Below are positions 48,570 through 50,790 of a DNA stretch of 64,000 bases, piece after piece; the first letter of the stretch is position 1, and every line of letters begins with the position of its first letter. Source of the DNA: Escherichia coli (GTDB taxonomy: Bacteria > Pseudomonadota > Gammaproteobacteria > Enterobacterales > Enterobacteriaceae); NCBI RefSeq assembly GCF_044324875.1, contig NZ_CP172185.1, one strand, 5' to 3'. Position numbers and translations under genes: made by a program. The notes below the pieces were generated by a model that searched no databases, was not told where the DNA came from, and worked only from the letters and a program-made list of their open reading frames with translations.

Positions 48570-49448
48570 TCAAATTTTTCCACTCACCACGAGTTGTTCC
48601 GTACACATTTGTAGTAAAAACAGTGGACTGCCTTCTACCGGTTTTTCTTTAGCCAACAACGAAATCTGTCGATAGAAGGTTGGTTCGAGAGGAACGGAAC
48701 ACAATTCACCTGCAATGGTTTTCAGCGTTAACTCTGGTAATAAGGCGATACCTAATCCCTGTCGAATAAAACTGATCGCTGTATCCGGGTGATTAAATTC
48801 ATATTTTATCTGTGGGGTAATATTCTTTTCTTTAAATAGTGCCATAATGCTTAATTCATAGCGTCCTTTACTAATGATTAATGGTTCACCCATTAATTCT
48901 TCCACTGTAATAGTGCTGTTTTTTGCCAGAGCATGGTTGGGCGGTAACACTACGGTGAATTTATCCTGATAAATGGGCACGGAGTACATTCCGCTCACCG
49001 GAAAATGAACAAAACCGGCATCAATGGATTCATTCTGAAGGGAATCAATAATCGCTGTGCTATTTTCCTCAAAAGGAATAATTTTTATATTCGGATGATG
49101 AATTTCAAAGTAGCGAATCACAACCGGTAAGATACAGGCGCAGACGCTGGGGAAACAACCAAGTCTCAGCGTTCTTTGAGGGTTCTGCTTTTCCTGCTCG
49201 GCTATCTCTTTTACTGCGTTCACTTCCCGATTAATGGCGCGCAGATGATGCATAATGCGGTGACCTGCAGAGGTCAGTTGTATAGCTTTACGGCGATCGC
49301 GTAACAGTATATTCACGCCAAGTTCTTGTTCGAGGGCAGCAATTGCCTGACTTACCGCCGACTGCGTCATGAACAATCGTTTGCTGGCTTCAGTAAAGCC
49401 ACCGTAATCCAGCACGGCGAGTAAAGAATTTATTTGGGTAAGAGTCAT
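48570..49448 (-). CDS. LysR-family transcriptional regulator (intact; occupies the position of K-12 yfaH)
   Basis: 292 aa; N-terminal helix-turn-helix (FTEASKRLFMTQSAVSQAIAALEQELG) and LysR substrate-binding domain; divergent from the MFS gene. Confidence 0.85.
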   Translation of the reverse strand: MTLTQINSLLAVLDYGGFTEASKRLFMTQSAVSQAIAALEQELGVNILLRDRRKAIQLTSAGHRIMHHLRAINREVNAVKEIAEQEKQNPQRTLRLGCFPSVCACILPVVIRYFEIHHPNIKIIPFEENSTAIIDSLQNESIDAGFVHFPVSGMYSVPIYQDKFTVVLPPNHALAKNSTITVEELMGEPLIISKGRYELSIMALFKEKNITPQIKYEFNHPDTAISFIRQGLGIALLPELTLKTIAGELCSVPLEPTFYRQISLLAKEKPVEGSPLFLLQMCTEQLVVSGKI

Positions 49449-49599
49449 TAGAGTTTGCTAATCAATAATATTAAAACGATTAATTTCTCTAATAGCATGC
49501 CGCCATTTATACTTCTGTTCTGCAAAGTACATCACAATTTGACGCAACCGCAGTAACGGGAGTGTTGTCTGCGTGCGTCATCCTGACAGGCGGTAGGGT

Positions 49600-50790
49600 A
49601 TGAAAGAGAAGTTATGGACGAAGGATTTTTGGGCAATAACCATCATCAGCTTTATTATTTTCTTCGTCTTTTATGTTTTACTAACATTGTTGCCAATTTA
49701 TATCTCTGACCGCTTGCATGCCTCTCCTGATAAAGCAGGTTTGTTGGTGACTTTATTTTTAATTGCGGCGATTGTTATTCGCCCCTTTGCCGGGCAATGG
49801 GTGGGTAAATATTCGAATAAAACTATTCTGGTGCTCTCTTCTCTGGCCTTTTTGTTGGTCACTGCGTTGTATCCTTTTTGCCTCTCAATTGAATCACTGC
49901 TTTTTATTCGGGTGCTTCATGGTATTACCTTCGGGGTTATCACTACGGTAAAAGGAACGATTTCCGCGCGGCTGATCCCGGCCTCCCGACGTGGGGAGGG
50001 CATCAGTTTTTTCTCTTTGGCAATGGGGCTGGCAATGGTGGTCGGGCCGTGGATTGGCCTGAATATGGCGCGCTGGGAGGCCTTTAATATGGCTTTCTGG
50101 TTATGCACCGGCGTGGCAGCGGTGGGGATTATTCTGTCGCTGATTATGACAGTGCCGCCGGTTATCAGCCATGCTGATGGTTCAACGCCGAAAATGGGCT
50201 TCGCCGCCATGTTCGATCGCGCGGCGTTGCCATTTGCGATGGTCACCTTTTTTATGACCTTTTCGTATGCCGGGGTTTCTGCTTTTCTGGCGCTTTATGC
50301 ACGCGAACTTAACCTGATGTCGGCAGCCAGTAATTTCCTGCTTTGCTACGCTATCTTCCTGATGATTTGCCGTACCTTTACCGGCAATGTCTGCGACAAA
50401 AAAGGACCGAAATATGTGGTTTACCCTTGCCTTGTGTTCTTTACGGTAGGACTGGTGGTTCTCGGCTACACCCAGGGAAGCATAATGATGGTTGTTTCTG
50501 GCGCATTGATTGGTATCGGGTATGGTTCCGTGACGCCAGTTTTTCAGACGCAGATTATCAGTTCAGTGGAACCGCATAAAATCGGTGTCGCAAACTCCCT
50601 CTTCTTCAATGCGATGGATGCAGGCCTGGCGCTGGGAGCCTGTGTGATGGGGATGATGGTTGCACATACTGGCTACCGAATGATTTATCTGCTGGGTGCA
50701 CTATTAGTGGTAGTGGCTGGTGGAGTCTATGCGCTGCAAATGAAGGGTAAAAGCGGTGTCGCGCTAGTAGTGGCAAAAGAAATTCATTAA
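49600..50790 (+). CDS. MFS transporter of unknown substrate
   Basis: 396 aa, about 12 predicted transmembrane helices; divergently paired with the LysR regulator. Confidence 0.8.
   Translation: MKEKLWTKDFWAITIISFIIFFVFYVLLTLLPIYISDRLHASPDKAGLLVTLFLIAAIVIRPFAGQWVGKYSNKTILVLSSLAFLLVTALYPFCLSIESLLFIRVLHGITFGVITTVKGTISARLIPASRRGEGISFFSLAMGLAMVVGPWIGLNMARWEAFNMAFWLCTGVAAVGIILSLIMTVPPVISHADGSTPKMGFAAMFDRAALPFAMVTFFMTFSYAGVSAFLALYARELNLMSAASNFLLCYAIFLMICRTFTGNVCDKKGPKYVVYPCLVFFTVGLVVLGYTQGSIMMVVSGALIGIGYGSVTPVFQTQIISSVEPHKIGVANSLFFNAMDAGLALGACVMGMMVAHTGYRMIYLLGALLVVVAGGVYALQMKGKSGVALVVAKEIH

Follow-up and report, generated by a model that had tools for sequence, protein, structure and literature searches.

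Closest described systems

The closest described relative of the locus analyzed here is O-island 97 of enterohemorrhagic Escherichia coli (EHEC) EDL933, which consists of z3494, encoding a transporter of the major facilitator superfamily (MFS), and z3495, encoding a LysR-type regulator (Wang et al. 2024, PMC10819331). Deletion of z3495 was reported to lower LEE transcripts, adherence to HeLa cells (3.36-fold) and mouse colonization, the defects being complemented, and deletion of z3494 gave no adherence or colonization phenotype. The effect on LEE was ascribed to direct binding of z3495 at the rcsF promoter, as seen by EMSA and ChIP-qPCR; the same study termed the regulator "laterally acquired" and classed z3494 as 'MFS_YfcJ' by its domain search (Wang et al. 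2024, PMC10819331). A literature search on yfaH, STM2280/STM2281 and ECs3123 returned no functional work beyond this paper.

At the level of gene organization, the classical divergent LysR pairs CynR-cynTSX, IlvY-ilvC and BenM-benA provide a second point of reference. Their regulators are about 300 amino acids long, with an HTH at the N-terminus and a co-inducer domain at the C-terminus, and face a divergent target across a spacer in which a T-N11-A dyad overlaps the regulator's own promoter region. The present locus resembles them in all these respects. On the transporter side, the YfcJ/YhhS-like MFS proteins (PRK05122, PRK12382) and the DHA1 pumps NorA and SotB share with our candidate the 12-TM MFS_1 fold class.

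The locus and its correspondence to O-island 97

The locus lies in a 64,000-nucleotide stretch of an E. coli genome (contig NZ_CP172185.1, hereafter the window), where its genes are arranged as follows:

44374-46813: glpT and glpQ, one flank of the LysR-MFS pair
46847-48557, no strand assigned: AT-rich insertion of 1,711 bp, outside the regulator-transporter module
47034-48104, minus strand: ORFan of 356 aa in the AT-rich insertion
48570-49448, minus strand: LysR-type transcriptional regulator of 292 aa (from the ORF list), orthologue of z3495 (O-island 97, EDL933)
49600-50790, plus strand: MFS transporter of the 12-TM type, 396 aa (from the ORF list), orthologue of z3494
50871-51521: inaA, the other flank of the pair, followed by yfaE, nrdB and nrdA

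The first-pass annotation, made from the sequence alone, had described a complete 292-residue LysR-type regulator placed divergently from a 396-residue MFS transporter between inaA and glpQ, and this description holds: the ORF list gives exactly these coordinates and sizes, and Pfam recognizes the corresponding domains in both products. Both ORFs start with ATG, the LysR frame has no internal stop in the six-frame ORF list, and the orthologues found in E. coli O157, E. albertii, Salmonella, Klebsiella and Kluyvera match the two proteins in length.

Comparison with an O157:H7 genome in which the order is glpQ-ORFan-LysR-MFS-inaA, gave amino-acid identities of 98.6% for the regulator and 98.7% for the transporter. 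Five published primers map to the window with 0-1 mismatch (48530-48569, 49425-49448, 49447-49486, 49560-49599 and 50684-50723), and those used for the knockout and complementation of z3495 (49447-49486, 48530-48569 and 49425-49448) do so with 0 mismatches. Given these identity values, the shared flanks and the position of the primers at the ORF borders, the pair is identified as the orthologue of z3495/z3494 of O-island 97 and is thus already known. The two loci have the same genes, orientation and flanks, including the AT-rich ORFan, and differ in strain background, the best nucleotide match of the window locus (99.4%) being to non-O157 isolates. The exact protein sequences of both the regulator and the transporter are also present in public collections under generic names. 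Since these genes are on record as O-island 97 and a published study has been devoted to them, finding them here is in itself of little weight.

The AT-rich insert that the first-pass annotation had placed next to the pair is also real, with a GC content of 31-35% across 46750-48500. The block 46847-48557 is missing at exactly these borders in K-12 and in E. albertii. No family matching its ORFan was found in Pfam, NCBIfam, PHROGs or PADLOC, and an exhaustive phmmer search against 1.84 billion cluster representatives recovered nothing beyond pieces of the ORFan itself and a single marginal match of 35% identity (E 2e-4). A single-sequence AlphaFold model had a mean pLDDT of 39.7, too poor for a fold search, and a repeat search at the ends of the insertion revealed neither a target duplication nor terminal inverted repeats. 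We conclude from these comparisons that the AT-rich block is a lineage-restricted insertion and not part of the LysR-MFS module.

The regulator and the transporter

The regulator matches HTH_1 (PF00126) over residues 3-63 (E 4e-18, 65.5 bits against a cut-off of 26.6) and LysR_substrate (PF03466) over residues 88-267 (E 2.9e-36, 125.2 bits against a cut-off of 28). Its domains, together with the operator-type candidate dyad described below, assign it to the LysR family. It differs from the regulators of the classical pairs in lying far below every named NCBIfam equivalog cut-off (GltC, CidR, AlsR, CynR, HcaR, OxyR and others); the best full-length scores were obtained with GltC (128.3 versus 350), CidR (123.7 versus 415) and CynR (117.1 versus 277).

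The transporter matches MFS_1 (PF07690) over residues 14-340, covering both six-helix halves (E 6.4e-58, 196.8 bits against a cut-off of 33.4), and a hydropathy scan predicted about 12 hydrophobic segments with a central loop at approximately residues 183-207. Classification by HMM, which had been suggested as a check, placed it in MFS_1 with no named NCBIfam family above its cut-off, the scores with PRK05122 (110.8 versus 374) and PRK12382 (85.4 versus 364) both falling short. Its identity with K-12 YfcJ is 21%, and it differs from YfcJ and YhhS in forming a separate orthologous group without a characterized member. By these criteria the protein is predicted to be an MFS_1 transporter resembling the DHA1 pumps and standing outside every characterized subfamily. 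The first-pass annotation had assigned no substrate, in agreement with the fact that the MFS gene has no known function.

The divergent control region and a candidate operator

The two start codons are separated by a short spacer, in which the following elements were distinguished:

49449-49599, no strand assigned: divergent control region of 151 bp between both start codons (from the sequence)
49447-49462, no strand assigned: second dyad, ATTAG-N6-CTAAT, overlapping the LysR start codon
49470-49484, no strand assigned: core perfect dyad ATTAAAACGATTAAT (ATTAA-N5-TTAAT, containing T-N11-A), lying upstream of the LysR ATG by 22-36 bp and a candidate recognition site for LysR
49479-49493, no strand assigned: third dyad, ATTAA-N5-CTAAT, overlapping, candidate activation-proximal site
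49531-49546, plus strand: conserved block ATCACAATTTGACGCA, in which the MFS promoter may have its -10 region or start area

A cross-genus alignment of the spacer from nine genomes revealed that the approximately 55 bp nearest to the LysR gene are nearly invariant and that the remainder diverges and varies in length. The half-sites of the core dyad show no change in E. coli (both alleles), E. albertii, Salmonella, Klebsiella, Kluyvera and Leminorella and one change in Pluralibacter, and from E. coli to Leminorella the distance between the dyad and the LysR ATG is fixed at 22 bp. The second dyad occurs in all Enterobacteriaceae compared except Pluralibacter and is absent in Leminorella; the third is kept from E. 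coli to Leminorella and lost in the O145-type allele. Exact matches to the core dyad number 2 in the 64-kb window, against 0.06 expected. The other perfect copy, at 13146-13160, was considered as a further operator and judged to be a chance match inside an AT-rich coding region.

In the conserved block at 49531-49546, the ATCACA and ACG(C/T)A columns do not vary between genera. Were this block to serve the MFS gene as its -10 or start region, the core dyad would be centered at about -65 to -70, where LysR recognition sites usually lie. A promoter/terminator scan of the control region detected no consensus sigma-70 promoter, as would be expected for an activator-dependent promoter. Against the proposed scheme, the candidate -10 and -35 elements match poorly. 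Rfam, run over 46500-51600, yielded only two sub-threshold chance matches.

The K-12 deletion and the distribution of the pair in E. coli

According to the first-pass annotation, K-12 possesses only a degraded LysR fragment (yfaH) at this place. This proved correct, since the inaA-glpQ spacer of MG1655 (462 bp) holds the yfaH pseudogene alone and the intact pair is missing. BLAST against the MG1655 locus showed that K-12 lacks two blocks of the window, namely the AT-rich segment 46847-48557 and most of both genes. The yfaH pseudogene (b2238; PRK09729) is 207 bp long; its product aligns to the last 68 residues of the LysR protein, at the nucleotide level it corresponds to the final 68 LysR codons with 92.8% identity over 207 bp, and the NCBIfam model PRK09729, built on the 68-residue YfaH, matches residues 226-292 of the regulator. 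What yfaH lacks relative to the window is the first 224 LysR codons, the control region and all but approximately 107 bp of the MFS gene.

Reconstruction of the junction located its two ends in the window:

48805-48812, no strand assigned: left copy of TTTATCTG, the microhomology of the K-12-type deletion
50684-50691, no strand assigned: right copy of TTTATCTG

Of the two copies of TTTATCTG in the window, only one is present in K-12, and the 1,879 bp between the copies are missing. The scar in K-12 therefore results from a microhomology deletion of 1,879 bp, by which the final 68 LysR codons were joined to the final ~107 bp of the MFS gene.

Among 5,426 complete E. coli genomes, 3,119 have a junction identical to that of K-12. 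Another 1,215 (about 22%) contain 80% or more of the pair, the AT-rich segment accompanying it in 710 of these, and approximately 1,060 genomes show no trace of it. The genomes without any trace have a distance of about 200 bp between glpQ and inaA and deletion borders unlike those of K-12, so the clean absence must have arisen by a separate event. The locus is thus as variable as had been supposed, its main states being the pair with the ORFan, the pair by itself, the K-12-type scar, the scar with the ORFan and the clean absence, and the synteny comparison with K-12 and other E. coli finds the pair missing from the former and patchy in the latter. With an occurrence of about 22%, the MFS gene is not universal in the species.

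Ancestry and selection

Outside E. coli, many MFS orthologues with 83-85% identity were found in Salmonella, Klebsiella and Kluyvera (79-85% when Leminorella is included), and the identity of the LysR orthologues goes from 90% in E. albertii down to about 60% in Leminorella. The pair is divergent in Salmonella, with glpQ on one side and yfaE-nrdBA on the other, and the same arrangement is found in Pluralibacter and E. albertii; in Klebsiella and Kluyvera it stands between glpABC and yfaE. Leminorella carries the two genes in another genomic context, still as divergent neighbors and with a transporter 79% identical to ours, and this persistence despite the changed surroundings argues for a functional coupling of the two genes. 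A neighbor-joining tree of the regulator tracks the species tree. A plasmid search retrieved no true plasmid copies, only mislabelled chromosomes and distant Firmicute homologues.

In comparisons with unsaturated dS, dN/dS was 0.04-0.13 for the LysR gene and 0.03-0.07 for the MFS gene. Such values (0.03-0.13 overall) show strong purifying selection on both genes and suggest that their function has been retained. The same position in other genera, the agreement of the gene tree with the species tree and the deletion scar of K-12 indicate that the pair is an old, vertically inherited module of the Enterobacteriaceae, which has been repeatedly lost and which the E. coli lineages devoid of it once possessed. 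The variability seen in E. coli accordingly stems mainly from the loss of an ancestral module and not from gain.

Proposed role of the pair and alternative readings

For this orthologue of O-island 97, an ancestral module that most E. coli lineages have lost, we consider it fairly probable that an autorepressing, ligand-sensing LysR protein activates an MFS exporter. A tetramer of the regulator would bind the candidate ATTAA-N5-TTAAT dyad over its own promoter region, leading to autorepression; binding of a small molecule by the regulator would then activate the weak divergent MFS promoter, and the MFS protein, acting as a proton-coupled exporter, would expel the same or a related molecule. 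The effect of the O157 orthologue on LEE would represent a secondary, lineage-specific use of the regulator.

More tentatively, the scheme may be extended to an ancient, self-contained sensor-exporter for a metabolite, possibly derived from the host or its microbiota, which would have been lost at least twice in E. coli (in about 77% of sequenced strains) and whose regulator would have been co-opted in EHEC for the tuning of LEE. If this were true, identification of the ligand would connect attaching-effacing virulence with a specific gut chemical, and the dispensability of the pair in commensal and ExPEC B2 lineages would be explained.

The published data can also be read to mean that z3495 is chiefly a virulence regulator, whose binding to the rcsF promoter raises Rcs signalling and in turn LEE expression, with the MFS gene unrelated to this role; the deletion phenotypes of z3495 with their complementation, the EMSA and ChIP-qPCR results at rcsF and the lack of such a phenotype upon deletion of z3494 all speak in its favor (Wang et al. 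2024, PMC10819331). We nevertheless regard this reading as unlikely. The ChIP-seq enrichments amount to only log2 1.2-1.8, many of them inside coding sequences (Wang et al. 2024, PMC10819331). The peak table is in K-12 coordinates, its glpA peak (2352683-2353187) agreeing with the start of glpA in MG1655 (2352647), so that the O-island 97 spacer was apparently beyond scoring. When the region upstream of K-12 rcsF was searched for the core dyad, no copy was found even with 2 mismatches. Furthermore, the pair is kept under purifying selection in Salmonella, Klebsiella, Kluyvera and Leminorella, genera that are not known to carry the LEE, and conservation in such genera argues that control of LEE is not the ancestral role. 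The ancestry of the pair contradicts the term "laterally acquired" (Wang et al. 2024, PMC10819331), and the virulence role is better read as the co-option of an old regulator. A cognate target and a role in virulence are not mutually exclusive for this protein.

The direction of transport deserves separate consideration, as the MFS protein could instead be a nutrient importer, with LysR activating uptake when the nutrient is present. Catabolic and uptake genes are frequent LysR targets, the transporter has a weak match to Pfam Sugar_tr (E 1e-6), and importer families occur among its weak NCBIfam matches. We find this option quite improbable, since no gene for a catabolic enzyme accompanies the pair in the seven genomic contexts examined and since the best solved relatives of the transporter are the efflux pumps NorA and SotB, the match to NorA being a weak one (46 bits) over the N-terminal half only, with the GPxxG segment included. 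This GPxxG motif, at residue 149, is located in the fifth hydrophobic segment and has the form of the antiporter 'motif C' of MFS proteins; its VVGPWIG core at residues 147-153 is kept in Leminorella and falls short of the full motif C consensus GxxxGPxxGG. In addition, Firmicute homologues of the transporter (about 36% identity) adjoin MarR regulators. On account of the similarity to NorA and SotB, the motif, the MarR-paired homologues and the lack of accompanying catabolic genes, we favor the outward direction and propose that the transporter is probably a proton-coupled exporter.

A laterally acquired island, which certain pathogenic E. coli clades would have gained in independent events (Wang et al. 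2024, PMC10819331), would account for the absence of the pair from K-12, its patchiness in E. coli, the low GC content of the LysR gene (42.8%) and the adjoining AT-rich ORFan insertion, but it is contradicted by synteny and by the deletion scar and appears extremely improbable, as K-12 has no empty site but the 3' ends of both genes joined at the microhomology, E. albertii, Salmonella and Pluralibacter carry the pair at the identical position, the gene tree follows the species tree, and no mobility genes or flanking or terminal repeats were found at the pair.

Further locus states and allelic variation

Two other states of the locus were encountered among E. coli genomes. In one of them the AT-rich ORF is split by IS1 and the K-12-type scar is present as well; in another, ISKox3 is inserted in the MFS gene. 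Finally, approximately 98 genomes carry a LysR allele only 76% identical at the nucleotide level, and a sliding-window comparison placed the recombination breakpoint near 49700, in the 5' end of the MFS gene. Only this divergent allele of about 1.2 kb looks imported, and it represents allelic replacement by recombination and not the gain of an island.

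Variation at the glpQ-inaA locus

In about 98 complete E. coli genomes, the LysR gene, the LysR-MFS spacer and the 5'-terminal ~100 bp of the MFS gene are present as a deeply divergent allele:

48558-49700: divergent allele, corresponding to positions 1650-2800 of the glpQ-inaA locus of E. coli O145 RM9873 (L004)

Its nucleotide identity with the window is 65-81%, with a dS of 2.6 for the LysR gene. Since these genomes rise abruptly to 95-99% identity with the window beyond ~49700, the comparison indicates a recombinational replacement of the LysR end, whose donor would be a deeper lineage of the Escherichia clade.

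In genomes without any trace of the LysR-MFS pair, represented by E. coli strain P4, ~100 bp (1615-1717 of its glpQ-inaA locus) match nothing in the window, and this segment separates the glpQ stop codon from the terminal ~19 bp of the MFS ORF. The presence of this unmatched segment points to a separate event, either deletion or replacement, with borders unlike those of the K-12 deletion.

The other flank of the pair is occupied by inaA:

50871-51521: inaA

The order MFS gene-inaA-yfaE was encountered only in E. coli when compared with E. albertii, Salmonella, Pluralibacter, Klebsiella and Kluyvera. As yfaE directly adjoins the MFS gene in these five taxa, inaA appears, from gene order, to have arrived at the MFS-yfaE site specifically in E. 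coli. On the minus strand of the inaA-yfaE interval, at 51530-51597, Rfam gave a match to naRNA4 (CssrE) that stays below threshold (27.2 bits, gathering score 59.5).

An AT-rich block with an ORFan lies beside the pair:

46847-48557: AT-rich block, 1,711 bp, 31-35% GC
47034-48104, minus strand: ORFan, 356 aa

The block is missing, with exactly these borders, in K-12 and E. albertii, and no mobility signatures were found at its ends. The ORFan had zero matches in Pfam, NCBIfam, PHROG and PADLOC, matched only its own fragments among 1.84 billion cluster representatives, and was modeled by AlphaFold with a pLDDT of 39.7.

Z3495 binding data and a second dyad

Z3495 is the LysR regulator of the same pair in E. 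coli O157:H7 EDL933 (O-island 97). Its published ChIP-seq peaks (PMC10819331, Supplementary Table S4) are weakly enriched (log2 1.2-1.8), and many are annotated to abundant housekeeping genes, among them dnaJ, ompA, ompC and pflB. The peak coordinates fit K-12 MG1655 positions, not EDL933, and O-island 97 itself could not be scored from this table.

A second perfect ATTAA-N5-TTAAT, ATTAAAACTATTAAT, occurs at 13146-13160 and shares 14 of 15 bases with the candidate operator of the spacer (49470-49484). It lies within an ORF:

12765-13973, minus strand: AT-rich ORF, 402 aa

This dyad is probably a chance match within AT-rich coding DNA.
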